Of a stretch of 20,000 bases of DNA, positions 6,301 to 19,336 are shown piece after piece. A program made the position numbers and the translations under genes. Origin of the DNA: an uncultured virus (IMG/VR IMGVR_UViG_3300040946_000488). Its lineage: Duplodnaviria; Heunggongvirae; Uroviricota; Caudoviricetes. The stretch is taken from the IMG/VR virus record IMGVR_UViG_3300040946_000488, one strand, 5' to 3'. Positions within the stretch are counted from its first letter, which is position 1. Each line of letters starts with the position of its first letter. The notes beneath the pieces were generated by a model. The model was not told where the DNA came from. It worked only from the letters and a program-made list of their open reading frames with translations, and did not search any database.

Positions 6301-6825
6301 CTACGAATCGAGCGCCGTTGTCCAGTACGGCGCCCATTCCTCGGGGATGTTGCGCGTGTCCATCCGCACCGTGATGGCCGGCAGGTAAGCCGGCTTCCTC
6401 GGCTGGCGGAGCAGTCGCATCCCCGCCTCGGCGGGAGTCCGATCCCCCTTGTGCTTGTTACACAAAACACAACAAGAACAAATGTTCTCCCACACGGTAC
6501 GGCCACCCCGCGAGCGTGGAATGACGTGGTCGAAGGTCAGATCTTCCGACATGAACTGATGCCCACAATACTGGCACCGGAACCCGTCCCGCGTGTAGAT
6601 GTTGACCCGGCTGAACTTCACCCTGATCCGCTCGCGCTTGAAGCTGTTCGCCAGGCGGACGACGGATGGCATCGGCCAGGCACGGGTCGCGCTCTGGATG
6701 GTCCTGTCCTTCGAGTATTCCACCACCTCGACCTTCCCGGTGAAGAAGTCGCAGATGGCCCTCTGCCACGGCTCCACGCGGAGCGGGCGCATCCCCACAT
6801 CGAGGACGAGTACAGCGGCGTTCAT
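6301..6825 (-). CDS. HNH endonuclease (McrA-like)
   Basis: VLVLD...PSVVRL...FSRVNIYTRDGFRCQYCG...LTFDHVIPRSRGG...WENI..CC..CN..KGDRTP.EAGM; AGGAG SD. Confidence 0.95.
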   Translation of the reverse strand: MNAAVLVLDVGMRPLRVEPWQRAICDFFTGKVEVVEYSKDRTIQSATRAWPMPSVVRLANSFKRERIRVKFSRVNIYTRDGFRCQYCGHQFMSEDLTFDHVIPRSRGGRTVWENICSCCVLCNKHKGDRTPAEAGMRLLRQPRKPAYLPAITVRMDTRNIPEEWAPYWTTALDS

Positions 6826-6873
6826 GGCATTCATCTCCTATGCTACAGGTTCATTCCGAGAAAATACAGCGTG

Positions 6874-6949
6874 CGCGCGAGGAGGGACTCAAACCCCCTG
6901 CCTCCGAGGTCATTACTCTACGGCGCTCTGTCAGTTGAGCTACTCGCGC
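6874..6949 (-). ncRNA. tRNA-like element with aberrant anticodon arm
   Basis: Acceptor GCGCGAG/CTCGCGC, D arm GCTC/GAGC, T arm GGGGG-TTTGAGT-CCCTC; anticodon arm bulged with ~9-nt loop. Confidence 0.7.
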
Positions 6950-7023: not shown

Positions 7024-7368
7024 TTAGTGGAGAAGTGGCAGGTTGGACACCACCTTCCTCACCGGGCGACGATCATGGACCAGGCTGCACCCGATGCATG
7101 TGGCCTGGCCGTCAAATGGGACATCGACCTCGACCACCAGCTTGTGATCCACCCCGGCCACGTCGAGCCTCCTGGAGAGAGCCCGCAAGGACGCCTCATC
7201 AGGGACCGAGAGCACGACAACATAGGTCTCCGGGGGATGCTGGCCGAAACTGCCGGCGGCATGGGCCACCTGAGCGGCCTGGAAACCGCGAGGCAAGTCA
7301 TCTCGCACCACCAGGTACTGGGTAGGGGGGCCGGCGTCAATCCTTGCCGTCGAACCCCGGATCGTCAT
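7024..7368 (-). CDS. Pth2-like peptidyl-tRNA hydrolase (start uncertain)
   Basis: QYLVVRDDLPRGFQAAQVAHAA...VVVLSVPDE..L...T.IG...LPLL is the Pth2 family pattern. Confidence 0.85.
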   Translation of the reverse strand: MTIRGSTARIDAGPPTQYLVVRDDLPRGFQAAQVAHAAGSFGQHPPETYVVVLSVPDEASLRALSRRLDVAGVDHKLVVEVDVPFDGQATCIGCSLVHDRRPVRKVVSNLPLLH

Positions 7369-7426
7369 CGATCGGCACCGTGGCGGTGCTGATGATGAGT
7401 CCGAGGAGATCATTTGCCTTGGACAT
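7337..7426 (-). CDS. 29-aa peptide MSKANDLLGLIISTATVPIDDDPGFDGKD upstream of/overlapping pth2-like gene
   Basis: GAGAGGA SD, GC3-rich codons, ends GAT TGA C. Confidence 0.6.
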   Translation of the reverse strand: MSKANDLLGLIISTATVPIDDDPGFDGKD

Positions 7427-7435
7427 GTTGTCCTC

Positions 7436-7788
7436 TCACTTGTATTCCCGTTTCGCCAGCTTGGGGAGGGTGTATTCGGCTCCCCTGAAAATCATGCCCT
7501 CAGGCCCCCATTTTGCGTATTTCTCGATCCCGGCCTTCGCGAGGGGCGACAGCTTGACGCCGGCACGGATGGCGAGTCCGTAGGGGGTCCACCGAAGGAT
7601 GTGCTGCAGATCCTTTGGGGTGACCTTGTCGTAGGCTGCGTTGGCGATGTGGTAGGGAACCTCAATGCTCTTGATGACCCCGTGCTCGATGGCTGAGAGT
7701 CCCTTCCGGACAGCCTTGAAGGGATTGAACCCCCATCCCTTGGTGGCGTCGAGGTAGTCTCCGAGAAGCTGCTGTTTTTTGATGCCAT
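7436..7788 (-). CDS. ~117-aa hypothetical protein needing a -1 shift (or 1 extra A) at codon 4-5
   Basis: AGGAG SD + ATG GCA TCA AAA AAC; the -1 frame (QQLLGDYLDATKGWGFNPFKAV...KREYK*) has GC3-rich codons and no own start. Confidence 0.6.
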
Positions 7789-7840
7789 GACGTGTTACTC
7801 CTAGACGGTTCGGCGCATCGGCCCCGATCGCATGGGCATG

Positions 7841-7868
7841 ATTCTATCCACGCCCAGGACTACGTCAA
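7841..7868 (-). promoter_or_regulatory. Sigma70-type promoter for post-array genes
   Basis: TTGACG-16 nt-TAGAAT. Confidence 0.6.
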
Positions 7869-7878
7869 GAGAAAAAAG

Positions 7879-7961
7879 TGCCCCCTGGGGGAGTCGGACC
7901 CCCACGGCCTTCCGGCCACCTGATTTTGAGCCAGGCGTGACTGCCATTCCACCAAAGGGGC
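7879..7961 (-). tRNA. trnL: tRNA-Leu(CAA)
   Basis: Cloverleaf, loop CTCAAAA, long variable arm, T loop TCCGACT. Confidence 0.92.
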
Positions 7962-7966
7962 AAAGG

Positions 7967-8049
7967 TGCCGGGAACAGGAATCGAACCTGCACGCCCTCA
8001 CGGGCGGGGGAGTTTAGGTCCCCCATGACTGCCATTCCATCATCCCGGC
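7967..8049 (-). tRNA. trnL: tRNA-Leu(TAA)
   Basis: Cloverleaf, loop CCTAAAC (C33), long variable arm. Confidence 0.9.
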
Positions 8050-8050
8050 A

Positions 8051-8136
8051 TGGTGCGCCCGGGGGGAGTCGGACCCCCACGGCCTTTCGGCCACACGACC
8101 CTGAATCGTGCGTGACTGCCATTCCACCACGGGCGC
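8051..8136 (-). tRNA. trnL: tRNA-Leu(CAG)
   Basis: Loop TTCAGGG, long variable arm, encoded CCA. Confidence 0.92.
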
Positions 8137-8137
8137 A

Positions 8138-8221
8138 TGATCGGCGAGGGAATCGAACCCTCACGTCCACAAGGGACACAGGTTCCTAAGACCTGCGCGA
8201 CTGCCATTCCGCCAGCCGATC
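8138..8221 (-). tRNA. trnL: tRNA-Leu(TAG)
   Basis: Loop CTTAGGA, long variable arm. Confidence 0.92.
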
Positions 8222-8226
8222 GTCGG

Positions 8227-8309
8227 TGCGAATGGGGAGACTTGAACTCCCACGGGGTTTCCCCCACTGGTCCCTCGAACCAGCGTGACTACCATTCCAC
8301 CACATTCGC
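8227..8309 (-). tRNA. trnL: tRNA-Leu(GAG)
   Basis: Loop TCGAGGG (C33), long variable arm. Confidence 0.9.
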
Positions 8310-8313
8310 ATTG

Positions 8314-8385
8314 AGCCGCCACGGGAACTCGAATCCCACTCTCCTGCTTACCAAGCAGGCACATCGCCATCAATGCTTTGGCGGC
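8314..8385 (-). tRNA. trnT: tRNA-Thr(GGT)
   Basis: Loop TTGGTAA, acceptor GCCGCCA/TGGCGGC. Confidence 0.9.
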
Positions 8386-8389
8386 ACGG

Positions 8390-8461
8390 AGTCCCCGGAG
8401 GGGATCGAACCCTCATCACCCGGTTTAGGAAACCGGGGCCAGTTCCAATCTGGACGAGGAC
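8390..8461 (-). tRNA. trnR: tRNA-Arg(CCT)
   Basis: Loop TTCCTAA; atypical D arm. Confidence 0.82.
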
Positions 8462-8470
8462 GTGAACTTG

Positions 8471-8542
8471 TGGGCCTGCCGAGATTCGGACTCGGAACCT
8501 TGCGATTATGAGCCACCCGCTCTACCGTTGAGCTACAGGCCC
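8471..8542 (-). tRNA. tRNA(CAT), Ile2-like body (could be Met)
   Basis: GGGCCTG acceptor, loop CTCATAA, weak anticodon stem. Confidence 0.8.
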
Positions 8543-8577
8543 GGACCAACCATCCATTACGCCACACCCAGAAACTG

Positions 8578-8650
8578 CGCCCACGACGAGAATCGAACTC
8601 GCCTCACTCGGTAGACAGCCGAGATGCTTCATCCAGAGGCACACGTGGGC
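8578..8650 (-). tRNA. trnD: tRNA-Asp(GTC)
   Basis: Loop CTGTCTA, G73. Confidence 0.88.
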
Positions 8651-8669
8651 AATGATCTGCCATCCCTTG

Positions 8670-8740
8670 TCGGAGCAGGGCGAATCGAACGCCCGCCTGA
8701 GCCACGTGAAGACTCGGTCCTCCCACTAGACGATGCTCCG
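8670..8740 (-). tRNA. trnV: tRNA-Val(CAC)
   Basis: Loop TTCACGT, A73. Confidence 0.88.
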
Positions 8741-8772
8741 TCTCTCCCGGCAGCACGAATTTCGATGTCAAG

Positions 8773-9139
8773 TGGACTCGGCGGGAATCGAACCCGCGTC
8801 CAGTATAGTGTTCAAAACGTCCAGCTACGAGCGTGTCTGGTTTCTTGGGGGCGAGAGACACCAGCATCTCCCACTGCTATGCCCTCCACCATCTCCTGTC
8901 CTTGGCCCTCAGCCGGAGAAGATCTGAGGGAGCGTCCCTGGATTAACGTCGCTGTCCGCTGCCGGGCGCTGGCGGGGCGACGCCTCTTGTCCCTGGCGGC
9001 AATCAAGCAGCCTGAGCGAGAGGAGCCTCGAACGCATTGTCGTTGGCTTTTGATTTTTGGCATGATTGATGAAGCGGCCTTCACACCTTCCGCTGCTCGC
9101 GTCCGTTCCTAGTCCTACCTGTCGATACCTTTCGAGCCC
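8773..9139 (-). ncRNA. ssrA: tmRNA; tag reading frame ANDNAFEAPLAQAA* at 9047-9003
   Basis: 5' GGGCTCG..TCGAC pairs with 3' CGAGTCC-A (G3:U70 alanine identity), GGAC-GCGGG-TTCGATT-CCCGC T arm, tag starting ANDN and ending AA. Confidence 0.95.
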
Positions 9140-9166
9140 AGGATGCCATGCTACCACGAAAATGAG

Positions 9167-9237
9167 TCGGAGCAGGAAGAATCGAACTTCCGTCTGAGGC
9201 TCGTAAAACCTCGGCCCTCCCACTGGACGATGCTCCG
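9167..9237 (-). tRNA. trnV: tRNA-Val(TAC)
   Basis: Loop TTTACGA. Confidence 0.9.
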
Positions 9238-9238
9238 G

Positions 9239-9310
9239 TGCGCGCGGCAAGACTCGAACTTGCGATCTCCGCCATGTCGAGGCGGCATCCTTCCACTGGA
9301 CGACGCGCGC
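9239..9310 (-). tRNA. trnV: tRNA-Val(GAC)
   Basis: Loop TCGACAT (C33). Confidence 0.9.
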
Positions 9311-9321
9311 TTGCGATCAAT

Positions 9322-9621
9322 TCATGCTCCCCTGGAAAACTCGTGCTCGCGACAGCTCCCGTCCGGCAGTACCCCCGTCCTCCGCGACCAATTCCGCCTG
9401 GCCCTGTCATAAGCCTCCTTGTCATCGTAGGAAATGGGACCTATCCAGGAAGGATGATCCTCCAGAGGCTTGGCCTTCGGATACGCAGGAACCGGATCAT
9501 TCTTGATGCAGTGAAGCTTGTCAGGTCCTTTCTTGGCCAAGAAACTGGTCTGCATCGTCATCGCCACGAATTTGCAATTCTGACACCTGCGGGAAAACCT
9601 GCAATACGTCTTCGGTCTCAT
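9322..9621 (-). CDS. 99-aa Cys-rich hypothetical protein inside the tRNA array
   Basis: GGAGGTG SD, CQNC...C...C..H putative metal ligands. Confidence 0.75.
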   Translation of the reverse strand: MRPKTYCRFSRRCQNCKFVAMTMQTSFLAKKGPDKLHCIKNDPVPAYPKAKPLEDHPSWIGPISYDDKEAYDRARRNWSRRTGVLPDGSCREHEFSRGA

Positions 9622-9636
9622 GTCTTTCACCTCCAG

Positions 9637-9709
9637 TCGGGATGGCCGGAGTCGAACCGGCAATCTCCTGTCCCCCAGACAGGCGGCTTACCAACAAGCC
9701 TTCACCCCG
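9637..9709 (-). tRNA. trnP: tRNA-Pro(GGG)
   Basis: Loop CTGGGGG, C1:G72 A73. Confidence 0.9.
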
Positions 9710-9817
9710 GTGGCCCCAGGAGATGACCCCTGGAGCCCATCCGCCATTAGCGGAGTCAGCTCACTTCAGCCAGTCCCTCCATGAGCACCCATCCCTGGAC
9801 GTCTCCAGCCTGGTGGA

Positions 9818-9892
9818 TGGTGCCAGCAGCGGGGAATGATCCCACTCCTTGCGCTTATGGGGCGCGAGTCCTGACCAACTCAGATTGCTGGC
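9818..9892 (-). tRNA. Atypical tRNA(CAT), possibly elongator Met
   Basis: Acceptor GCCAGCA/TGCTGGC-A-CCA, loop CCCATAA, non-canonical T loop ATCATTC and D/anticodon linker. Confidence 0.65.
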
Positions 9893-9896
9893 AGAG

Positions 9897-9969
9897 AGCC
9901 CGTGAGAGGATTTGAACCCCCATAGACCTGGTCCGTAGCCAGGCGCCTGATCCATTAGGCTACACGGGC
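9897..9969 (-). tRNA. trnR: tRNA-Arg(ACG)
   Basis: Loop CTACGGA. Confidence 0.92.
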
Positions 9970-9975
9970 GATTAG

Positions 9976-10047
9976 TAGCTCCGATGAGAATTGAACTCAC
10001 GTTCCCGAATTGAAAGTCCGGTGTCCTGTCCGTTGGACGACGGAGCC
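9976..10047 (-). tRNA. trnE: tRNA-Glu(TTC)
   Basis: Loop CTTTCAA. Confidence 0.92.
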
Positions 10048-10049
10048 GC

Positions 10050-10124
10050 TGGTGATCCCAGGGGGATTCGGACCCCGCATTCCTGCCGTGAGAGAGCAGT
10101 GTCCTGCCGTTAGACGATGGGACC
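10050..10124 (-). tRNA. trnE: tRNA-Glu(CTC)
   Basis: Loop CTCTCAC, encoded CCA. Confidence 0.9.
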
Positions 10125-10126
10125 AA

Positions 10127-10203
10127 TGGAGTCCTCGGCCGGAATCGAACCGGCATTGTGCCTGGATCGGAGCCAGGTGCCCTGTCCATTAGGCGACGAG
10201 GAC
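10127..10203 (-). tRNA. trnR: tRNA-Arg(CCG)
   Basis: Loop CTCCGAT, encoded CCA. Confidence 0.9.
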
Positions 10204-10205
10204 GG

Positions 10206-10278
10206 TGGAACCCCCGCCGGGACTCGAACCCGGGACGCCTGGTTTAGAGGACCTGGCTGCATTCCAATAGCCGGGGGC
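10206..10278 (-). tRNA. trnR: tRNA-Arg(TCT), degenerate D arm
   Basis: Loop CCTCTAA (C33), A.A mismatch in anticodon stem, canonical T arm, CCA. Confidence 0.7.
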
Positions 10279-10281
10279 AGA

Positions 10282-10357
10282 TGGCTCCGGGAGTAGGGAT
10301 CGAACCTACGACTTCTTGATTAACAGTCAAGCCGCATTACCACTCGCGTATCCCGGA
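10282..10357 (-). tRNA. trnN: tRNA-Asn(GTT)
   Basis: Loop CTGTTAA, T1:A72, G73, CCA. Confidence 0.93.
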
Positions 10358-10358
10358 A

Positions 10359-10433
10359 TGGAGCTGGTGAGAGGAGTCGGACCCCCAACCAACGCATTAC
10401 AAATGCGCTGCTCTGCCATTGAGCTACACCAGC
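10359..10433 (-). tRNA. trnT: tRNA-Thr(TGT)
   Basis: Loop TTTGTAA, CCA. Confidence 0.92.
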
Positions 10434-10434
10434 G

Positions 10435-10530
10435 TAGCGGGGACTGGATTTGAACCAGTGAAACCGAGATTATGAGCCTCGTGGGTTTCGATCCGGCTTC
10501 CACCGGACCTCCAGACTTCCCTACCCCGCA
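10435..10530 (-). tRNA. Initiator-like tRNA-Met(CAT) with extra hairpin in the D loop
   Basis: TGCGGGG/CCCCGCT-A with 1:72 mismatch, loop CTCATAA, T loop TTCAAAT; 96 nt. Confidence 0.8.
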
Positions 10531-10531
10531 G

Positions 10532-10603
10532 AGCCCATGCGCAGACTTGAACTGCGCTCGCCGGCTTACGAAACCGGAGCATCGCCGTCTATGCTTCATG
10601 GGC
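10532..10603 (-). tRNA. trnT: tRNA-Thr(CGT)
   Basis: Loop TTCGTAA. Confidence 0.9.
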
Positions 10604-10608
10604 GAATG

Positions 10609-10681
10609 AGCACCGTGCGAGAATCGGACTCGCGTGAAACCGGCTTGGAAGGCCGGCGCCCAGCCACTAGGCCAACGGTGC
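10609..10681 (-). tRNA. trnG: tRNA-Gly(TCC)
   Basis: Loop CTTCCAA, U73. Confidence 0.9.
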
Positions 10682-10684
10682 AGA

Positions 10685-10759
10685 TGGAGCGGAGGACGAG
10701 ATTCGGACTCGCGTCGTCTGCCTTGGCAAGGCAGTGCCTAACCACTCGGCCACCTCCGC
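10685..10759 (-). tRNA. trnG: tRNA-Gly(GCC)
   Basis: Loop TTGCCAA, U73, CCA. Confidence 0.92.
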
Positions 10760-10845
10760 ATCGGAGGCCCCGTTACCCGGGCCGGAGCTTTGATCCTCCA
10801 CGGAACCCACCGAGGTACTCCTTGTACTGGCCCGAGATCGCGATG

Positions 10846-10917
10846 AGCGAGGGACGGAACTCGGATCCGCATGATCTTCCTTGGGAAGGAAGCGCCTAAC
10901 CTCTCAGCCACCCTCGC
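10846..10917 (-). tRNA. trnG: tRNA-Gly(CCC)
   Basis: Loop TTCCCAA, U73. Confidence 0.9.
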
Positions 10918-11058
10918 AAACTGGCGATGCCGGAACGGATTGAGCGCGTAGATCGGTCGCGGTGACCCGCTGGCTCGCCAGATCCTGGCCGGTAGAGCCG
11001 GCGACGATGCTCGTGATCAAGGAGCATGATGTCTCGCCGGACGAGCGACTAGGTTTTG

Positions 11059-11129
11059 AGGCAGGAGCGGGAATCGAACCCGCGGTTGCAGTTTTGCAGA
11101 CTGCCAGCTTGCCACTTGCCGATCCTGCC
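11059..11129 (-). tRNA. trnC: tRNA-Cys(GCA)
   Basis: Loop CTGCAAA, U73. Confidence 0.92.
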
Positions 11130-11132
11130 ATT

Positions 11133-11411
11133 TCACGTCCACAGATCCGGATCCAACCTCCACCGGCCCCTCCCCTGCTTGGGGGAGCGATCCATCCCGA
11201 GGCCGCATGCCCCCCGCGCGACCTTGGGACGACCGGGAGTCTTCTTGCTGCAATGATGGCACCTCCATTCCCCATCCTTCCTCATGCCCAGATTCCTGGT
11301 GAGGAACCTGGAAGGCCACTTCCACCTCTCATGAGGACACACATCCCAGAACCTCCTCACCATCCACTTCACATAGTTCTCGTCTCGCCTTCGTCTCTCT
11401 CCGCGATCCAT
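11133..11411 (-). CDS. Small Arg/Trp-rich basic protein
   Basis: 92 aa, MDRGERRRRD start, CHHC motif, GGAAAGG SD-like sequence. Confidence 0.65.
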   Translation of the reverse strand: MDRGERRRRDENYVKWMVRRFWDVCPHERWKWPSRFLTRNLGMRKDGEWRCHHCSKKTPGRPKVARGACGLGMDRSPKQGRGRWRLDPDLWT

Positions 11412-11548
11412 GTTTGAGCCTTTCCCTGGCCCGCCCCTCTTCGGGGCTGACTAGGGAATGCCCTGCCCGTGCCTTCCTTCATGACGATTTCACCTCAATG
11501 TAAAGGGGCTTTAGATGATTGACCATGGATAGCAGTTTGGTCAATTCT

Positions 11549-12382
11549 TTACGGAGAGAGCGGAACTGCTAGGTTGAAGAACTCACTCTGCGTATTGGGT
11601 AGGATCAGCCGTCGGTCCTGCGGTACGCCCTTCCATCGCTCCTTCCTCTTGGGCTTGTAGAACACTAGGAAGTAGGAATGGCTCTTTCGAGCGTGTGCCT
11701 GTTGGAGTATCCGACTGACTCCGGGGCGCCCGTTGCGCATGACAACGAAGAGATCCTCTGCCACGAATCCGTAGGTCGCCAATTCGTTGATGATTTCTAC
11801 GTGTGTGAGGCGCTGGACGTTGGCGCAAACTTCATCCTGGCACTTGACGATGTAGATGCCACCCGCACGAAGCACCCGCCTAGCTTCCCGCGCTGCGGAG
11901 AAGTAGAGATCAAGAACCGCCTCGTGGTACTTGAGTTCCGACTGCGCTTGGTTGTTGCGATAGTAGTTCTCGAAGTTCTGATGTCTGTCGTGCGCTCCCT
12001 TCCCTGGCGTGTGCATGTACGGCGGATCGAATACAACGCAGTCGATGGAGCCGTCGTCGTACGGCAGCTTTCGGCAGTCGACCCCATGCATGAGATCCGA
12101 GGGAAGCAACCTGTACGCACCGGACGGGATCTTGCGCCAAAACACGCCTTTCCCGTACGTTACGTCTGCGACAGTGCTGCCTTTGGCGACGAACAGAACC
12201 ATCACCTGGGGGAACACGTCGTCGTTGTTGCCAACATACGAACTAAAGACGAGATCGTTGGTCGCGATGCCATCCGGTGCCTTCCGCTTCTTCTTCACCG
12301 GCGTCTCGCCTGTCGACGGGATGTCCGGAGATACCACGGGTTCGATGGAAATGAGATCGCGCAGCATCGTGGTCTGTTTCAT
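11549..12382 (-). CDS. Amino (N6-A/N4-C) DNA methyltransferase
   Basis: VADVTYGKG (SAM-binding motif variant) then CVVFDPPY and [10 protein letters not shown]; start 12382 or 12367 or upstream GTG 12433. Confidence 0.9.
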
Positions 12383-12451
12383 GTCGCACCTGTCTTCTAC
12401 GACGATTCCTTCGCGGGATGCTGCCCCCTCCACAAACCATCCCTGACAGGA

Positions 12452-12480
12452 ATCGTCTTACCACCCGAACTGGATGTCAA
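12452..12480 (-). promoter_or_regulatory. Candidate promoter of methyltransferase
   Basis: TTGACA-17 nt-GACGAT with GTTCGGG spacer motif. Confidence 0.5.
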
Positions 12481-12632
12481 GAAACAATCCCCATGAATCG
12501 AGGACCGGGCCGCCAGGTCGAAGGGATCCGTTCTGCACGGCGCACCCTCGCGAATGTGCTCCCAGCCACCTGGCGTTGCCCGGCGCCCCTGATTTTATCT
12601 CCATGGAGCCGGCCCCATGGCCGGCCATCGCC

Positions 12633-12785
12633 CTACCTGACAGGAACGATCCGGTATGCCGGAGTCCTGTCCTTCGATCCGCACTGCATGTATTGAGCGA
12701 CCTTGTCCGCGGCCTCCTGCCGCGTGTGGAACGGACCGCCAATGCGAACCCAGCGACCGTCCACGTACATCATGATCTGGTACAT
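12633..12785 (-). CDS. 50-aa hypothetical protein MYQIMMYVDGRWVRIGGPFHTRQEAADKVAQY...
   Basis: AGGAGG SD 7 nt before ATG; GC3-rich; below ORF-track cut-off. Confidence 0.75.
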   Translation of the reverse strand: MYQIMMYVDGRWVRIGGPFHTRQEAADKVAQYMQCGSKDRTPAYRIVPVR

Positions 12786-12894
12786 CGGACACCTCCTGTT
12801 GACTGTGGAGGCGTCTCTACGGTGGATGTCCTTTCATGCCGACACTCCCTTCATCCTTGATTCGCAGATGTCACATCCGAGGCTGAAAGGCAAT

Positions 12895-12923
12895 ATCTTC
12901 CTGCTGCCCGAACCAGATGTCAA
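12895..12923 (-). promoter_or_regulatory. Candidate internal promoter
   Basis: TTGACA-17 nt-GAAGAT with GTTCGGG spacer motif. Confidence 0.5.
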
Positions 12924-12934
12924 GGACCATCTCC

Positions 12935-13025
12935 TGGAGGAGAGTGCAGGAGTCGAACCTGCTCGGGGCTCGCGCCACCGGCTCCGGTTTAGCAAACCGG
13001 CCTGTTGCCGTTCCAGCAACTCTCC
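12935..13025 (-). tRNA. trnS: tRNA-Ser(GCT)
   Basis: Loop TTGCTAA, long variable arm, CCA. Confidence 0.92.
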
Positions 13026-13036
13026 ATGCCAACCTG

Positions 13037-13126
13037 AGGAGCTGGAGCGGGTCGAACGCTCAAAGCCGATCTCTCGGACTTGCCCGCTTTCAAGGCGGGA
13101 GGGCTTGCCACATGCCCAACAGCTCC
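13037..13126 (-). tRNA. trnS: tRNA-Ser(TGA)
   Basis: Loop CTTGAAA, long variable arm; paralogue of Ser(CGA). Confidence 0.9.
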
Positions 13127-13136
13127 ATCACGACAG

Positions 13137-13224
13137 AGGAGAGAGGGAGGATCGAACTCCCGTGGCGCTCTTCGCGCCAACCTCAGCTTTCCAAGCTGGC
13201 ACCTTGCCACTCGGTCATCTCTCC
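13137..13224 (-). tRNA. trnS: tRNA-Ser(GGA)
   Basis: Loop TTGGAAA, long variable arm. Confidence 0.92.
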
Positions 13225-13225
13225 A

Positions 13226-13318
13226 TGGAGGAGCTGGGGCGGGTCGAACGCCCATAGCCGATCTCTCGGACTAACCCGCTTTCGAGGCGGGCGGGCTTGC
13301 CAGATGCCCAACAGCTCC
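13226..13318 (-). tRNA. trnS: tRNA-Ser(CGA)
   Basis: Loop CTCGAAA, long variable arm, CCA. Confidence 0.9.
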
Positions 13319-13323
13319 GGGGG

Positions 13324-13394
13324 CGGGCCGTGAAGGAATCGAACCTTCATATCCGGATTTGGAGTTCGGAGTCCTGCCACTGGACGAACGACCC
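13324..13394 (-). tRNA. trnW: tRNA-Trp(CCA)
   Basis: Loop CTCCAAA, G73. Confidence 0.9.
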
Positions 13395-13400
13395 ACGAAG

Positions 13401-13471
13401 TGGAGACAGAGGGAATCGGACCCTCATTACCAGACTGCCAGCCTGGCGTCCTACCGTTGGACGATGTCCCC
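13401..13471 (-). tRNA. trnA: tRNA-Ala(GGC)
   Basis: Loop CTGGCAG, G3:U70, A73. Confidence 0.92.
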
Positions 13472-14023
13472 ATCAGGTTTCACCCTGGATTGCCGACCTC
13501 TCCCATGATTGCGACCCCTGTATGTCAAAGTCAAAGCATCACAATTGGGACAAATCAGCCTGAGATTCTCCTTTGCCCCATTATAAGCATTGCCGTCTAT
13601 GTGATCCACGACCAGAGGAATTGGCTCCCCCAACCACTCAGTCAATCCGCAAACCTGGCAAACCCGACCCCTCTCCCGCAAAAGTTGATCCTTGTTGAAA
13701 GACGCAGTCCCATAATGAGGAGGATGAATAAGCTTCAATCCCTCCAGACGTTGAGCCTTATCCTTACAATCCCTGGTGCAGAATCGAAGCCCGCTCCTGG
13801 ATCTAGAAAGCTGGCTCGTCGACCTCTCAAAAATCCTGCCGCACTGAGCACATGTGAGAGACACCCGACGACGCCTGTTCTTGCCCCTGCACGCCACAGA
13901 GCAACACACATACGTCTCCCCCACATGCTTGGGCACCCAAAATTCCGAATGGCACACCACACACACCCTAGCGAACAGCCTCCTCATGTGACCGTCATAT
14001 CGATCAGACACGATGGACTTCAT
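13451..14023 (-). CDS. HNH homing-type endonuclease with two N-terminal zinc-binding repeats
   Basis: CVVC..F....CCS..C and CAQCG..F....FCT..C repeats; CQVCG...LVVDHIDGNAYNGAKENLRLICPNCD; start 14023 or 13987. Confidence 0.9.
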   Translation of the reverse strand: MKSIVSDRYDGHMRRLFARVCVVCHSEFWVPKHVGETYVCCSVACRGKNRRRRVSLTCAQCGRIFERSTSQLSRSRSGLRFCTRDCKDKAQRLEGLKLIHPPHYGTASFNKDQLLRERGRVCQVCGLTEWLGEPIPLVVDHIDGNAYNGAKENLRLICPNCDALTLTYRGRNHGRGRQSRVKPDGDIVQR

Positions 14024-14066
14024 GAGATGAAATATACCTCATCTGCGCAAAACATATCAACTCCCG

Positions 14067-14139
14067 TGGACCTGGCGTGACTCGAACACGCCGCCTCCTG
14101 CGTGCGGAACAGGCGCTCTCCCAGATGAGCTACAGGCCC
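14067..14139 (-). tRNA. trnA: tRNA-Ala(CGC)
   Basis: Loop TCCGCAC (C33), G3:U70. Confidence 0.88.
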
Positions 14140-14144
14140 ATGTG

Positions 14145-14218
14145 TCAGCATGGCGGGCTCCGCCCCCGCGGCCTCCTGGTCCCGAACCAGGTGCGCCACT
14201 AGGCTGCGCCACACGCTG
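14145..14218 (-). tRNA. trnP: tRNA-Pro(CGG), aberrant T loop
   Basis: Loop TTCGGGA; T loop GGCGGAG. Confidence 0.78.
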
Positions 14219-14230
14219 AAAAAACTCGGG

Positions 14231-14305
14231 GGTGTTCGACGAGACTTGAACTCGCTTGGTCATGCGGTCACAGCGCACGGGCTCGACTCTTCGCCCTCGA
14301 ACACC
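14231..14305 (-). tRNA. trnH: tRNA-His(GTG)
   Basis: Loop CTGTGAC, G-1:C73. Confidence 0.88.
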
Positions 14306-14306
14306 A

Positions 14307-14382
14307 TGGTGGGGATGGAGGGAATTGAACCCTCATCTGCCGCTTATCGAGCGGCTGCCCTTGGCCGTTGTGCTACATCCCC
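14307..14382 (-). tRNA. trnI: tRNA-Ile(GAT)
   Basis: Loop TCGATAA (C33), CCA. Confidence 0.9.
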
Positions 14383-14521
14383 TCATCTTCCCCCTTTCCA
14401 GCGCCGTAGGGGAAGGGGACCAGAAACATTCCGGCCCACGGCTCTCGGCGCCCATGCCCCTGGGCGCCTTCGACACCTCCCAGGCAGGGCATTGTCGGAA
14501 ACACACCCGCCCGGGTGCTGC

Positions 14522-14596
14522 TGGTCGGGATGGCGGGACTCGGACCCGCATCGCCTCGGCCCCAGACCGAGTGCCTAACCTTTAGGCTACATCCCG
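14522..14596 (-). tRNA. trnP: tRNA-Pro(TGG)
   Basis: Loop TCTGGGG (C33), T loop TCCGAGT, CCA. Confidence 0.88.
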
Positions 14597-14603
14597 CTGA
14601 TTG

Positions 14604-14675
14604 TCGAAGCGGCGGGAATCGAACCCGCGTCGTCTCGGTCCCGAACCGAGTGCCTGTCCTCTAGGCTACACCCCG
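14604..14675 (-). tRNA. trnP: tRNA-Pro(CGG)
   Basis: Loop TTCGGGA. Confidence 0.9.
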
Positions 14676-14679
14676 CGAG

Positions 14680-14750
14680 TTCCGGCTGAGAGGATCGAAC
14701 TCCCGTATCCCGGGCCAAAGCCGGGCGCCCTGCCATTGAGCGAAGCCGGA
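14680..14750 (-). tRNA. trnQ: tRNA-Gln(TTG)
   Basis: Loop CTTTGGC. Confidence 0.9.
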
Positions 14751-14751
14751 A

Positions 14752-14826
14752 TGGTTCCCGAGGCACGAGTCGAACGTGCAACCAACGACTTCAGAGGCCG
14801 CTGCGCTCCCATTGCGCCACTCGGGA
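14752..14826 (-). tRNA. trnQ: tRNA-Gln(CTG)
   Basis: Loop CTCTGAA, CCA. Confidence 0.9.
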
Positions 14827-14944
14827 TCGATAGATCTGATGCCCTGCCGGCCTCGCTACGGCAACAGGACAACTTGATGACTTTTTCGACGGGGTCTTGA
14901 GTACCCCACCAGGAGGATGATTGCCACCCCCGGCATCAGATCAG

Positions 14945-15017
14945 TGCCCCGCTCCAGAGTCGGACTGGACCCTCGGCATCTTCAGTGCCGCGCTCGTCCC
15001 ACGAGAGCTTGCGGGGC
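14945..15017 (-). tRNA. trnF: tRNA-Phe(GAA)
   Basis: Loop CTGAAGA. Confidence 0.88.
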
Positions 15018-15655: not shown

Positions 15656-15991
15656 CTACTTGCGGATCTGAGCCGCCGCCGGCAGGGACGCAGGCCTCGT
15701 CGGCGGGATGGACCCCCGGATGAAGATCGGGGCTGCCGCCACCACCGCATCCGACAGCGACGCGAACGCCGCCAGGAGGGAAGCCCCCGCCGTGGCGATC
15801 CCAGGATCCACGGGCACCGATGCCGCCGCCGCCGGCTGCAACACCTTGCCACCCTTGACCATGATCATCATCCTGGCGGCCACGTTGGTCGGATCTGCCG
15901 TGTCCCGGACCGCGACCGAAGCCCTCACGGAATCCGCGAGGACCGTCACCGATTCGAGCGATGTCGTGTACGTCTTCTGGATCGTTGCCAT
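15656..15991 (-). CDS. 111-aa Ala-rich hypothetical protein (possibly virion-associated)
   Basis: AAGGA SD before MATIQKTY; GC3-rich. Confidence 0.75.
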   Translation of the reverse strand: MATIQKTYTTSLESVTVLADSVRASVAVRDTADPTNVAARMMIMVKGGKVLQPAAAASVPVDPGIATAGASLLAAFASLSDAVVAAAPIFIRGSIPPTRPASLPAAAQIRK

Positions 15992-16043
15992 GTTCGTTCC
16001 TTCTTTCCTGTGGATGGCCTGTGGCGGCCGTTTTCTCGGAAAT

Positions 16044-16355
16044 CTATGGGCTATCGTCCCTACAGGGCCAGTCGGGCAGGTCGACAGACTTGCCGGAAAG
16101 CCCATGGCTGCTGTCAGCATGGAACAGCAGCTTGCCAACCGTCAAGTTGAGATGACACCTGCGTCTCCCCGGATCAGGATTGTCGGGACTCGTGTTGAGA
16201 AGAGACGGCGAAAAAGTAGGGCTCGCCTGATCGCCATCGAATGCCCACGTGAAAGGTCCTGCCGTGAAGAATGCGTGAGTATGCTCACAACCCGGACAAT
16301 GGAAAGCCCAGCCCCTGATGGAGCCCCCATCATCGACTACCGGCTTGAGCTTCAC
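16044..16355 (-). CDS. DUF6527-like zinc-binding phage protein
   Basis: FHCPGCEHTH...W.FDGD..SPTFSPSLL...CH...G...F..DSSH.L.GK.VDLP; GTGA coupling with fibre gene. Confidence 0.8.
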   Translation of the reverse strand: MKLKPVVDDGGSIRGWAFHCPGCEHTHAFFTAGPFTWAFDGDQASPTFSPSLLNTSPDNPDPGRRRCHLNLTVGKLLFHADSSHGLSGKSVDLPDWPCRDDSP

Positions 16356-19336
16356 GGATTCGCCACCAACAATGTAGACACTCCCCCAATCGGGACCGAC
16401 AAATACACCGGCACAAGCTTGATGTTGCCATTATGATCCTGAATGAGCAGCGCCATGTCCGTAGTGTTGTTCGCCGTGAGATTGGACTCCGCGAACTGGA
16501 ACAAGTCAAGCACCGTGCCAGGCCCGACGCCGGGCTCGTTCGAGACGACCCGGAATGTCTGGACGTGACCGAAATACTGATCGAACACCGTCTCGTTGGC
16601 GCCCGCCGTGGCTCCGTACCCTATGGCGATAGCACTCACCCCGCTGGTCACGGCATCGGTCCCTATGGCGATGGTCCAGGTCCCGACGGCCTGCACGCCT
16701 GCCCCTATCGCCACATGATAGTCGCCGTCCGCCGAAGAACCCGTCCCGACCACCACACAGCCGTCCGCCGATATCCCATGGACGTTCGCCCCATCGCCGA
16801 CGACGACATTGCGGAGACCATCATTCTGGACCTGGGCGACATCCCCCAAGCACACATTCCAACTACCCGTCCCCTGGACCTGGGCATTGTAACCCACGCA
16901 CGTATTCTGATCTCCACCATTGGTCGACGCCCCATTTCCCATGACAACGGTATTAGTACCCGTCACCGTAGCCCCCAGCCCGATGGCAATGTTGCTATCA
17001 CCCACAATCGTAGAACCTGCCCCGATGGCAATGCCCCAGTCATTATACTCCTCAGCAGGCGAACCTGCCGAAGCATTCAAACCGATGGCGACACATCCCT
17101 GATTTCCTGGTTCCCCCGTACTGACCCCAACCCCAATCCCCACCGCATAAGACGCCCCCACATAAGATCCTGAACCAATAACAATCGAAGAAAAACCACT
17201 TATCGCAACATTGTCCCCAATCGCAACCGAACTATCAGCCGACATGGCAGTGCCGTCGCTGCCTATCCCCACCGAATTGTTCCCATCCACGTACACCCCC
17301 GGCCCCAACGCTATGCTGCCCTGGCCATTCGACGATACCGTGCTCCCACTCCCAATCGCTATCCCGTAATCAGTCAAGACCGAAGCATTCGCCCCCATGG
17401 CAATACAATCATTCAAGGGAATCGCGGACGTGGCAACCTGGCCCACGCTGGCAGACATCCCCATCACGACAGTACCAACCCCATAAGTCCCCGCCCCGTG
17501 CCCAATGACGACGTTGTCATCATAAGTCGTCGAGACGCTCAACCCCTGGTACCCCACCGTGGCCTCATACCCTATGGCCACGTTGTTGTTGGAAAAAACG
17601 CCGCTCAAGTGATCGCCAGCCTCGGCATAGTAGCCGAGGGCCACATTGAATTGACCCCACGTGAGGGCCGGCGAACCGATCGCGATGCTAAAATTGCCCG
17701 AAGCCCAGGCTCCCGTAGCCTCCGGCCCGCTGGAACCGATGGCAATGCCCCCCGTCTCCGCCAACTGCGAACCATAGGCATACACCCCAGCGACAGACTC
17801 ATGGCCTATGGCTATGCTGTCGGGACCCGCCGCCACGGCATCAGACCCAACAGCGATGGCATTGTCAGAATAAACATAAGACGAGAATCCGATGGAGACG
17901 GAATAGTCTGCCGCACCTATGGTGGAATCGCCCACTAACGCCAACCCCAATGCCACCGAATACATACCAATGACCGTGGAGGACGGACCCACCGCCACGG
18001 AATAGTCCGAATCGAACAGATCCGAAATGCTTGCGCCATCCCCGATGGCGATGGAACTGTTCCCCCATACGATCGCCCGCCTCCCTATGGACACTGTCAT
18101 GTCTGCATAACCGGCCGCTTGGTACCCGATGGCCAGAGCAGCATTATACGAACTCGGAAACGTGTATTGACCGCCCGCGGTAGTTTCAAACCCGATCGCA
18201 ATGCATCCCGTACCCCACGCATTGCCATAGGCACCCAAGGCCACACATCCCTCCTCAGAATAGTACCCCGAACCGATGTCACTGCCGGCATACTCGGAGG
18301 GACCGATGGCTATGCTCTCCATCCCGGTAGCCTCGGCATACCAACCCATGGCGATATTGTCAGAACCGTAAAAAGAATCGTATCCATTGGTGTGGGCTCC
18401 CAACCCGATCGCAATGCTGCTGCCATCAGTGAGAGAACCGTCATTGCAATTGGCCGGATAACCCGAAACCCCAATCTCGATGCTGCGGGGACCTAGCACC
18501 ATGCCCCCAGCAGACCTGAATGCCGCCCCCTCCCCCCCAGGGACCAACACCTGCACCGCCTCCGGATCCGTGAACCCCACCATATCGGAAGCATCAAAAA
18601 TAACCTTGCCTCCCTGAGCATCCTCCAAGCTGAAAGTCTGATCCAATGGTACCGATCCCACCTCGTAGGCAGCATGAATGGTCTCGCTAGCACCCCCTCC
18701 CGTCGCCGTCTGCGAACCCCCCATGGTCACGGTGAATGGAGAGAGGATGGTGCCCTTGACATTCAGGCGGACATACCTGATCCGATCGCCCGTGGCCAGC
18801 GGCGAGAACTCGAACGACTGGGCACCCAACAACGAGGATGAGGCAGGCTCCGCCGAGAACGATCCGATGGGATTGAAATCCTGGTCGTCGAGGCTGCCCT
18901 CCACCACCACCGAGCCCCGCACCCCTCCCTGCGCCAGGAAGTTCACGTCCCCCTGGTAATTGACCAGGCCTAGATCGCTGCTGGGCTGCGGGCCACTGTC
19001 CCCAGGCACCAGCGTCGGGAAAATCCCAAAAGTGTTATTGCCCGGCAACGACAGCCCAGATATGTTGGCCGTCACGCCCTGGGCACCCGTAACCTGCGAC
19101 CGGATCCTCACCCACTGCAAAGCGCCCGAGAAGGTCTGCTGGATGCCCTCTATGCCACCCGCCTTGAAGGACAAGATCGGATCGAAGTGGATCCCATCAT
19201 GGCTCCCGAGCAAGACGTACTGACCCTCGAACGTCCCGGACAAGGTGACGGTCTTCTCGCCCACCAGAACGGACACATTCACGGCGACGCCGTCGCCTGC
19301 GCTGGGCACGGGGATGTTTAGGATGAAGGTTGCCAT
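16352..19336 (-). CDS. Putative tail fibre/adhesin with YadA-head-like (SIAIG) beta-roll repeats
   Basis: 994 aa, dozens of ~14-aa (S/N)xAIG repeats; AGGAGG SD; no signal peptide or C-terminal barrel anchor evident. Confidence 0.85.
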   Translation of the reverse strand: MATFILNIPVPSAGDGVAVNVSVLVGEKTVTLSGTFEGQYVLLGSHDGIHFDPILSFKAGGIEGIQQTFSGALQWVRIRSQVTGAQGVTANISGLSLPGNNTFGIFPTLVPGDSGPQPSSDLGLVNYQGDVNFLAQGGVRGSVVVEGSLDDQDFNPIGSFSAEPASSSLLGAQSFEFSPLATGDRIRYVRLNVKGTILSPFTVTMGGSQTATGGGASETIHAAYEVGSVPLDQTFSLEDAQGGKVIFDASDMVGFTDPEAVQVLVPGGEGAAFRSAGGMVLGPRSIEIGVSGYPANCNDGSLTDGSSIAIGLGAHTNGYDSFYGSDNIAMGWYAEATGMESIAIGPSEYAGSDIGSGYYSEEGCVALGAYGNAWGTGCIAIGFETTAGGQYTFPSSYNAALAIGYQAAGYADMTVSIGRRAIVWGNSSIAIGDGASISDLFDSDYSVAVGPSSTVIGMYSVALGLALVGDSTIGAADYSVSIGFSSYVYSDNAIAVGSDAVAAGPDSIAIGHESVAGVYAYGSQLAETGGIAIGSSGPEATGAWASGNFSIAIGSPALTWGQFNVALGYYAEAGDHLSGVFSNNNVAIGYEATVGYQGLSVSTTYDDNVVIGHGAGTYGVGTVVMGMSASVGQVATSAIPLNDCIAMGANASVLTDYGIAIGSGSTVSSNGQGSIALGPGVYVDGNNSVGIGSDGTAMSADSSVAIGDNVAISGFSSIVIGSGSYVGASYAVGIGVGVSTGEPGNQGCVAIGLNASAGSPAEEYNDWGIAIGAGSTIVGDSNIAIGLGATVTGTNTVVMGNGASTNGGDQNTCVGYNAQVQGTGSWNVCLGDVAQVQNDGLRNVVVGDGANVHGISADGCVVVGTGSSADGDYHVAIGAGVQAVGTWTIAIGTDAVTSGVSAIAIGYGATAGANETVFDQYFGHVQTFRVVSNEPGVGPGTVLDLFQFAESNLTANNTTDMALLIQDHNGNIKLVPVYLSVPIGGVSTLLVANP

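Follow-up and report, generated by a model that had tools for sequence, protein, structure and literature searches.

We have analysed a 20,000-nucleotide (nt) stretch of DNA from an uncultured virus of the Caudoviricetes (IMG/VR record IMGVR_UViG_3300040946_000488; this whole stretch is referred to below as the window), which holds the transfer RNA (tRNA) array of a large phage for which metagenomes are the only known source. ARAGORN found 42 tRNA genes and one transfer-messenger RNA (tmRNA) gene between positions 7878 and 15317, all on the minus strand, and reading of the gaps between them added at least three further tRNA-like genes. Uridine at position 33 of the anticodon loop is nearly invariant in cellular tRNAs, and it and particularly U55 of the T loop are some of the most highly conserved nucleotides of all life. 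An initial annotation of the sequence had listed genes of this array with C in its place, or with C in place of U at position 55 of the T loop, a site whose pseudouridine is called the most universally conserved tRNA modification in a passage of PMC7912444. Our parsed structures reproduced those lists exactly for the seven C33 and eleven C55 genes called by ARAGORN, and the eighth C33 gene, an atypical tRNA(CAT) lying outside ARAGORN's 42, was borne out by direct reading of its anticodon loop. The variant genes are given here; the sister lineage and the RNA-library contigs named in some entries are described in the following section.

7878..7961, minus strand: tRNA-Leu(CAA), C55, T loop TCCGACT (ARAGORN structure)
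7965..8049, minus strand: tRNA-Leu(TAA), C33; the U33 form would make TTAA (ARAGORN structure)
8051..8136, minus strand: tRNA-Leu(CAG), C55 (ARAGORN structure)
8225..8309, minus strand: tRNA-Leu(GAG), C33 (ARAGORN structure)
8470..8542, minus strand: tRNA(CAT), C55 with A59 (TCCGAAT); the U55 form would make TTCGAA; RNA-library contig reads C
9237..9310, minus strand: tRNA-Val(GAC), C33 (ARAGORN structure)
9816..9892, minus strand: atypical tRNA(CAT), anticodon loop CCCAUAA (C33), T loop AUCAUUC (A54 and U58), encoded CCA (gap reading)
10050..10124, minus strand: tRNA-Glu(CTC), C55 with A59 (TCCGAAT) (ARAGORN structure)
10206..10278, minus strand: tRNA-Arg(TCT), C33, under the Rfam threshold; RNA-library contig reads C
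10359..10433, minus strand: tRNA-Thr(TGT), C55; the sister-lineage orthologue (92% identity) has U55
10608..10681, minus strand: tRNA-Gly(TCC), C55, also in the sister lineage
10685..10759, minus strand: tRNA-Gly(GCC), C55 with A59; C55 also in the sister lineage
10845..10917, minus strand: tRNA-Gly(CCC), C55; the orthologue (89% identity) has U55; RNA-library contig reads C
13400..13471, minus strand: tRNA-Ala(GGC), C55; RNA-library contig reads C
14066..14139, minus strand: tRNA-Ala(CGC), C33 (ARAGORN structure)
14307..14382, minus strand: tRNA-Ile(GAT), C33, also in the sister lineage; RNA-library contig reads C
14522..14596, minus strand: tRNA-Pro(TGG), C33 and C55; the orthologue (82% identity) has U33 and U55
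14944..15017, minus strand: tRNA-Phe(GAA), C55, under the Rfam threshold; the sister-lineage copy is identical; RNA-library contig reads C

With C33 in 7 of the 42 tRNAs and in one extra gene, and C55 (T loop TCCGA) in 11 of the 42, the array departs from the invariant U33 and U54-U55-C56 of bacterial-type tRNAs. The neighbouring conserved sites are intact: T54 was found in 41 of 42 tRNAs, C56 in 42 of 42, A58 in 41 of 42, the G53/C61 pair in 40 of 42 and the D-loop GG in 41 of 42. No purine occurs at position 33 among the 42 tRNAs, and the sole non-pyrimidine at position 55 belongs to an aberrant Pro-CGG gene at 14144-14218. Within the window the D loop does not covary with C55, GG being kept in all 11 C55 genes; G57 accompanies C55 in 11 of 11 cases, yet it is also present in most of the U55 loops. 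The atypical tRNA(CAT) at 9816-9892 folds as a cloverleaf and was called by neither ARAGORN nor Rfam. Physical clustering of the variant genes was considered and rejected, since they are dispersed along the array.

We compared these frequencies with those of 188 non-identical tRNAs from other phage loci, most of them fetched with the gene for the peptidyl-tRNA hydrolase PTH2 as marker; locus L016 was obtained by a T-arm pattern search, and L002 and L005 through a methyltransferase query. The tabulation of positions 33 and 55 that the initial annotation had proposed gave an excess for C55 (11 of 42 in the window versus 6 of 187 elsewhere; Fisher p=1.3e-5) and none for C33 (7 of 42 versus 19 of 188; p=0.28). 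The enrichment of C55 in the window is strong and specific, whereas C33 at the level found here seems to be common to phage arrays at large and stands out only in comparison with the cellular norm. For one fixed T-arm context in IMG/VR, T55 was present in 116 and C55 in 2 of the 118 matches listed. G+C content is not the cause of C55, because the G+C-rich loci L018 (58%) and L033 (60%) have C55 in only 0 of 35 and 2 of 31 tRNAs, respectively.

T loops with changes of other kinds were also seen in this material. On L016, a 219-kb IMG/VR phage contig, the tRNAs at 7741-12735 include 9 of 14 with G55, in TGCRA loops, and AG replaces the D-loop GG in seven of the TGC-loop genes, an apparent A18-G55 covariation; one Gly tRNA of this contig has G56 and a D loop that lacks GG, a possible C19-G56 combination. 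Loops of the form ATCRTNN, in which A54 and U58 amount to a swapped 54-58 pair, occur in the atypical tRNA(CAT) of the window, in Glu-TTC of the sister-lineage contig L022, in Lys-CTT and Met of L018, and in Ser and Ile of L016.

Turnover of positions 33 and 55 between sister phages

Megablast of the array against deposited phages returned one 58-base match only, no relatives were found through the open reading frame (ORF) at 15656-16138, and an exact 26-mer of the Phe tRNA had no match in viral and genome contig collections. A profile search of IMG/VR with PTH2 gave 18 loci, which besides L018 have only small tRNA sets. A metagenome scan with the PTH2 alignment yielded 40 loci, of which L019 is approximately 100% identical to part of the window, and L020 to L024 together with L026 represent a single sister lineage with a PTH2 that is 92% identical to that of the window. 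The array of this lineage is syntenic with ours and diverged from it, with 72-81% DNA identity in the array versus 87-95% in the flanks. In L022, the sister-lineage contig used for most of the comparisons below, C55 was found in 9 of 32-33 tRNAs and C33 in 5 of 33, partly in other genes than in the window; the frequency of C55 is alike in the two lineages.

Among 29 same-anticodon pairs of tRNAs from the window and L022, in which gene replacement instead of orthology may account for some of the low-identity cases (72-75%), the nucleotide at position 55 (N55) differs in 11, N59 in 13 and N33 in 5, and the stems differ at 22-26% of positions; N56 differs in none of these pairs, N8 in 1 and N58 in 2. 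A subset of 17 pairs reaches an identity of 80% or more (mean 93.3%), and within it we counted 5 differences at N55, 4 at N59, and 2 each at N33 and N37, as compared with 10 among 170 T-stem positions and none at N54, N56, N57 or N58. Changes at N55 in these 17 pairs exceed the mean rate (P=0.004 for 5 or more) and are no different in number from those at the free position N59. Single-base flips at position 55 stand isolated in the alignments of Thr-TGT, Gly-CCC and Gln-TTG, beside compensatory changes in the stems.

The states of N55 in the window and the relative, respectively, are C and C in 4 pairs, C and T in 5, T and C in 5, and T and T in 14, with no detectable association (p=0.41), so that the variant is not conserved in a given tRNA species across these related phages; for N33 the corresponding numbers are 2, 2, 3 and 22. 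Position 55 behaves as a free pyrimidine in this lineage, and the actual anomaly is that its invariance has been lost. The suggestion that the parallel change reflects selection for C is not supported by these comparisons: C is not conserved between orthologues, and substitution at N55 (5 of 17) is no different in frequency from that at another loop site, N59 (4 of 17), a rate that does not demonstrate selection for C and an outcome that the initial annotation had itself named as refuting its interpretation. The distant outgroups L018 and L033 were judged an unreliable guide to the direction of the changes, and were not used for it. Within the sister lineage itself we noted a single-base anticodon polymorphism, by which one gene (L021:659-732, L022:5680-5753) encodes a Lys tRNA (TTT) on one contig and a Thr tRNA (TGT) on others.

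The same alignments bear on whether the variant genes could be redundant copies that are drifting towards pseudogenes. A comparison of 493 base pairs of the acceptor, anticodon and T stems between the window and L022 showed 367 to be unchanged, 99 to be changed on both sides and paired, 18 to be changed on one side and paired, and 9 to be broken in one lineage, so that 117 of the 126 changed pairs still pair. Stem mismatches per tRNA number 0.18 in the variant genes and 0.25 in the canonical ones, and many of the variant genes are the only copy of their anticodon in the array. Pseudogenes would be expected to combine stem breaks with the loss of several invariant sites; here 9 broken pairs stand against 117 preserved ones, and the other invariant positions are intact. 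There are aberrant members of the array that fit decay, namely Pro-CGG at 14144-14218, a CAT tRNA with an insertion, and the odd CAT and His-like genes. Furthermore, the gathering threshold of the Rfam tRNA family RF00005 (29 bits) is reached by 36 of the 42 ARAGORN tRNAs, including 15 of the 17 variant genes, and the 6 that fall below it (Asp, Arg-TCT, Ser-TGA, Ser-CGA, Phe and Tyr) include one C55 gene (Phe) and one C33 gene (Arg-TCT). Since stem pairing has been kept and the variants are no worse than the rest, simple decay is ruled out as a general account, and we consider it very unlikely that drift of redundant copies explains the variants. To judge from their sequences, the tRNA genes of the array are functional. 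Accordingly, of the interpretation offered in the initial annotation, the part that excluded decay has held up and the part that invoked selection for C has not.

That annotation had also raised C-to-U editing as a means by which the genomic C would be turned back into U; a deaminase of the phage or of its host would carry it out. Two RNA libraries, from two studies, contain 23-27% of the sampled words of the stretch, and three studies other than the possible sources contain half or more of them. The depth of the RNA-library contigs is very uneven (182 in the bin of the tmRNA, 161 in the bin at 7374-7660 and 0 in several bins), which argues for transcription rather than carried-over DNA. These contigs span several genes, and are therefore probably precursors rather than mature tRNA reads; they may also include DNA. 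Of the 18 variant sites, 6 lie in the pieces shown (C55 of CAT, Gly-CCC, Ala-GGC and Phe, and C33 of Arg-TCT and Ile-GAT); at all 6 the contigs carry the genomic C, and no letter other than the genomic one was found in them at variant sites, an observation that is not decisive in contigs of this kind. No deaminase family was detected among the 29 ORFs of the window that were scanned with Pfam, and the flipping between U and C in orthologues requires no editing. The sole point in favour of editing is that every change is from U to C, the only direction that a cytidine deaminase could reverse, and we regard this explanation as most improbable.

TTCGAA avoidance and the T loop

A factor that the initial annotation had left unconsidered is selection on the DNA. 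The sequence TTCGAA is the most under-represented 6-bp palindrome of the window, with no occurrences where a Markov model predicts 8.2 and shuffled sequences have 4.56 on average. It is likewise absent from L020, L021, L022 and L026, and it occurs 13, 13 and 10 times, respectively, in the unrelated arrays L018, L033 and L048. Avoidance of palindromes and restriction sites in phage genomes is a classical phenomenon, and TTCGAA shows its features here, being far below expectation, absent from relatives as well, and present in unrelated phages. It is presumably a restriction site of the hosts, and an enzyme that cuts it would then exist in the host of this phage.

At the DNA level, TTCGAA also encodes the most common T loop (U54 U55 C56 G57 A58 A59), which accounts for 41 of 187 loops elsewhere; at that frequency, the probability of finding it in none of 42 tRNAs is 3e-5. 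Among the TYCGA loops of the window, A59 accompanies C55 in 3 of 11 cases and U55 in 0 of 24 (p=0.025), and in L022 the corresponding values are 4 of 9 and 0 of 15 (p=0.012); at other loci, A59 is found with U55 in 41 of 116. The single loop of the window that combines U55 with A59 has A57 (TTCAAAT), by which the site is likewise destroyed, and 3 of the 11 C55 genes would acquire TTCGAA if C55 reverted to T. Avoidance of TTCGAA therefore explains why A59 is found only together with C55 or A57, and it accounts for 3 of the 11 cases of C55. Because the avoided site coincides with the conserved T loop, the avoidance is paid for at tRNA position 55, 57 or 59. Selection on the DNA is the one demonstrable selective force here.

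Shorter or other palindromes were considered as well. Avoidance of TCGA, as for a TaqI-type enzyme, was rejected as a cause of C55, as this tetranucleotide occurs 131 times versus 117 expected; three of the C33 loops in fact create it. As a cause of C33, palindrome avoidance is a weak candidate, since only Leu-TAA would make TTAA (5 seen versus 9.4 expected). On L016, TCGA was seen 78 times as compared with 96 expected, with no strong avoidance. Other palindromes absent from the window are CTCGAG, GGGCCC, CAGCTG, GAGCTC, AGCGCT and CCTAGG (expectations of 2.7 to 6.9); in L022, CTCGAG, TTCGAA and GAGCTC are absent and GGGCCC occurs once.

Other genes of the array and its flanks

The remaining features that we recorded in the window are as follows.

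8772..9139, minus strand: tmRNA with the tag ANDNAFEAPLAQAA and the canonical T loop TTCGATT (ARAGORN and Rfam, with an Rfam score of 102 bits); top depth among the RNA-library contigs
10435..10530: CAT tRNA with an insertion of ~40 nt (gap reading)
14144-14218: aberrant Pro-CGG, T loop GGCGGAG
near 14224-14300: His(GTG)-like tRNA gene (gap reading)
6874-6949: tRNA-like gene just downstream of PTH2, Rfam 43 bits, irregular anticodon arm, T loop TTTGAGT (U56)
7024..7413, minus strand: peptidyl-tRNA hydrolase PTH2 gene, on the downstream (low-coordinate) side of the array
11549..12433, minus strand: DNA methyltransferase gene within the array
13451..14023, minus strand: HNH endonuclease gene within the array
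6301-6834: HNH endonuclease gene
16352-19336: gene for a 994-residue protein with YadA-head repeats
632-1255: gene for a TSCPD-domain protein

The protein-coding genes of the array and its flanks are phage-like. The ORF at 3834-5708 (624 codons) has no family match and lies in a stretch of low G+C content (49% versus ~60%); it is probably a recent insertion. Contigs from the DNA run X8 skip either 885 bases (11530-12416, the methyltransferase gene) or 1912 bases (10885-12798), so that the methyltransferase insert is missing from some members of the population, as expected of a mobile gene. A search with the methyltransferase gene gave 15 loci, none of which has a related array, with homologues in unrelated phage contexts. 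The gene is mobile.

The CAT tRNA at 10435-10530, with an extra hairpin of ~40 nt after the D arm and before the anticodon arm, has a minimum free energy of -40.2 kcal/mol (z=-2.95); the gene in its place in the sister lineage is a CAT tRNA of 73 nt with the T loop CGCACAT. The tRNA-like gene at 6874-6949 has a counterpart at the same place in L020, L021, L022 and L023, called there as Ile-AAT with a 9-nt loop, and L017 has a tRNA with a TTTGAAT loop at the matching place. The PTH2 genes of the distant phages L018 (9986-10330) and L017 (3211-3546) start with ATG and 3 codons followed by an in-frame TAG before the conserved domain, which suggests amber read-through or recoding; tRNA genes with the anticodon CTA lie immediately downstream of PTH2 in both, and another gene of L017 has a 6-nt loop that is ambiguous.

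Possible causes and relation to known systems

The explanation we favour, to which we assign a probability of roughly one half, is that positions 33 and 55 have been relaxed to pyrimidine in functional phage tRNAs, with TTCGAA avoidance shaping a subset of the genes. The "invariant" uridines would have been freed strongly at position 55 and, at position 33, about as far as in the arrays of other phages. The states would flip between orthologues of sister phages through single transitions, T to C or C to T, at the pace of N59, and about a quarter of the genes would carry C55 at any time, in a set that differs by lineage, with C tolerated rather than preserved. At position 55, U is about three times as common as C, the flux between the two is symmetric, and the frequency is equal in both lineages. 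Equal frequency and symmetric flux agree with an equilibrium, with C either tolerated or slightly deleterious, and the continued predominance of U suggests that C is neutral to mildly deleterious. We infer that the C55 and C33 tRNAs work in translation, and that the remaining 8 C55 genes and the C33 genes reflect the relaxed constraint.

Several observations weigh against this explanation. GC pressure alone fails to explain the lineage specificity, given the low C55 counts of L018 and L033. TTCGAA avoidance covers only 3 of 11 C55 genes and none of the C33 genes, and TTAA covers at most 1 of 7 C33 genes. An immune nuclease that requires U55 has been described in passages of PMC13462974. N55 is no slower to change than the free N59 even though only transitions occur at it, which could also reflect diversifying selection, the 17-29 pairs being too few to tell; the possible gene replacements among the low-identity pairs count on the same side. 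Finally, the tRNA-Phe of the distant array L033 also has C55, on a T stem unlike that of the window, a hint of retention of C55 in one or more tRNA species.

Both the lineage specificity of C55 and the labelling of the runs that contain the stretch as peat or wetland would also suit an RNA-level adaptation unrelated to defence, such as a looser elbow for cold peat, or independence from or avoidance of host TruB/TrmA or a phage modification enzyme. We consider such an adaptation unlikely: there is no positive evidence for it, G18 and G19 are unchanged in the C55 genes, and no modification enzyme was found in the window.

Another candidate is escape from a tRNA-cutting defence of the host, in which C55 would remove the U54-U55-C56 required by T-loop nucleases of the Schlafen/Cash type, C33 would alter the anticodon loop that anticodon nucleases see, the phage would gather resistant forms of its tRNAs, and changes in host pressure would drive the turnover. 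According to the passages of PMC13462974 that were searched, the CRISPR-associated Schlafen nuclease CbCash cleaves tRNAs chiefly in the T loop, directly 5' of U55 within UUC, as well as certain anticodon loops ahead of a UC motif; a single mutation of U54 or U55 abolishes its cleavage. C55 would remove the UUC motif that this enzyme requires, and by this analogy nuclease evasion is plausible for C55. Changes in the anticodon loops of phage tRNAs have already been proposed as nuclease evasion (PMC10264068, in whose searched passages U33 and the T loop are not mentioned). The lineage-specific enrichment of C55, which G+C content does not explain, the status of position 55 as the fastest-changing site, and the loss of UUC by other routes, with covariation, in other phage arrays also speak for escape.

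A number of observations do not agree with escape. Of 42 tRNAs, only 11 would be safe from a nuclease whose targets include most tRNAs, and the protected set differs between the sister lineages (C to T in 5 pairs and T to C in 5) at equal frequency, a pattern that resembles an equilibrium and not a sweep. Five of the 7 C33 loops create U32-C33, and C33 is unlinked to C34, contrary to what a UC motif predicts, as C34 is present in 1 of 7 C33 genes versus 15 of 35 U33 genes. Lys tRNAs are classic targets of PrrC and PARIS, and those of the window have canonical loops. To our knowledge, no host and no nuclease are known for this phage. We therefore hold escape to be possible, with the balance of the evidence tilted against it. 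In a broader and rather doubtful form of the idea, the T-loop elbow would be a front of the arms race, at which C55, the combination of G55 and A18 in L016, and that of A54 and U58 in L018, L022 and the atypical tRNA(CAT) of the window would be independent deletions of UUC that keep a working elbow, and the flipping would be diversifying selection.

The genes compared here provide about 20 structurally maintained natural tRNA genes that lack U55, with matched U55 orthologues one base apart, and these natural pairs are ready isogenic material for the question of what U55 and pseudouridine 55 are needed for. Were nuclease escape true, counter-defence by phage tRNAs would extend from the anticodon loop to the elbow. 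Our literature searches on C33 or U33 in phage tRNAs, on U55 or the T loop in phage-encoded tRNAs, and on U55C gave no paper describing the pattern, and one on restriction-site avoidance in tRNA genes gave no paper describing the shaping of a T loop. C55-rich phage arrays, and a restriction site that shapes the T loop, were described in none of the papers found.

Working tRNAs that lack U33 or a canonical T loop are known from other systems, in the C33 of the eukaryotic cytoplasmic initiator tRNA and in the degenerate T loops of animal mitochondrial tRNAs. Those features are fixed lineage-wide in particular tRNAs or in whole organelles, whereas U and C alternate here among canonical elongator tRNAs of bacterial type. 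Arrays with dozens of tRNAs are also found in mycobacteriophages of cluster C1, with about 33 tRNAs per phage in the passages searched of PMC10264068. The array in the window has, in addition, a tmRNA and insertions resembling homing endonucleases, and it differs from the cluster C1 arrays in having no DNA similarity to deposited phages, its closest relatives being metagenome contigs. With the phage tRNAs of van den Berg et al. 2023 (PMC10264068), as far as the passages searched go, it shares a large array beside translation-related genes and loop departures at conserved positions.

Phage tRNAs with altered anticodon loops have been proposed or shown to withstand anticodon nucleases of the host, among them T5 tRNAs against PARIS and retron Eco7. 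Known nuclease-resistant phage tRNAs of this kind are specific tRNA species or sites matched to a known nuclease, in contrast to the changes in the window, which affect the universal U33 and U55 in numerous tRNA species and lack conservation between the sister lineages. CbCash resembles our case more closely in that the enzyme hits UUC and requires U55, the site that C55 changes; the differences are that U55C itself does not appear in the searched passages of PMC13462974 and that only about a quarter of the tRNAs in the window have C55. Classical restriction-site avoidance offers the remaining parallel, as the window lacks several 6-bp palindromes that the sister lineage lacks too. The present case differs from it in that the avoided site falls on the sequence encoding the universally conserved T loop, and where a restriction site coincides with that loop, DNA-level defence can shape tRNA sequence.

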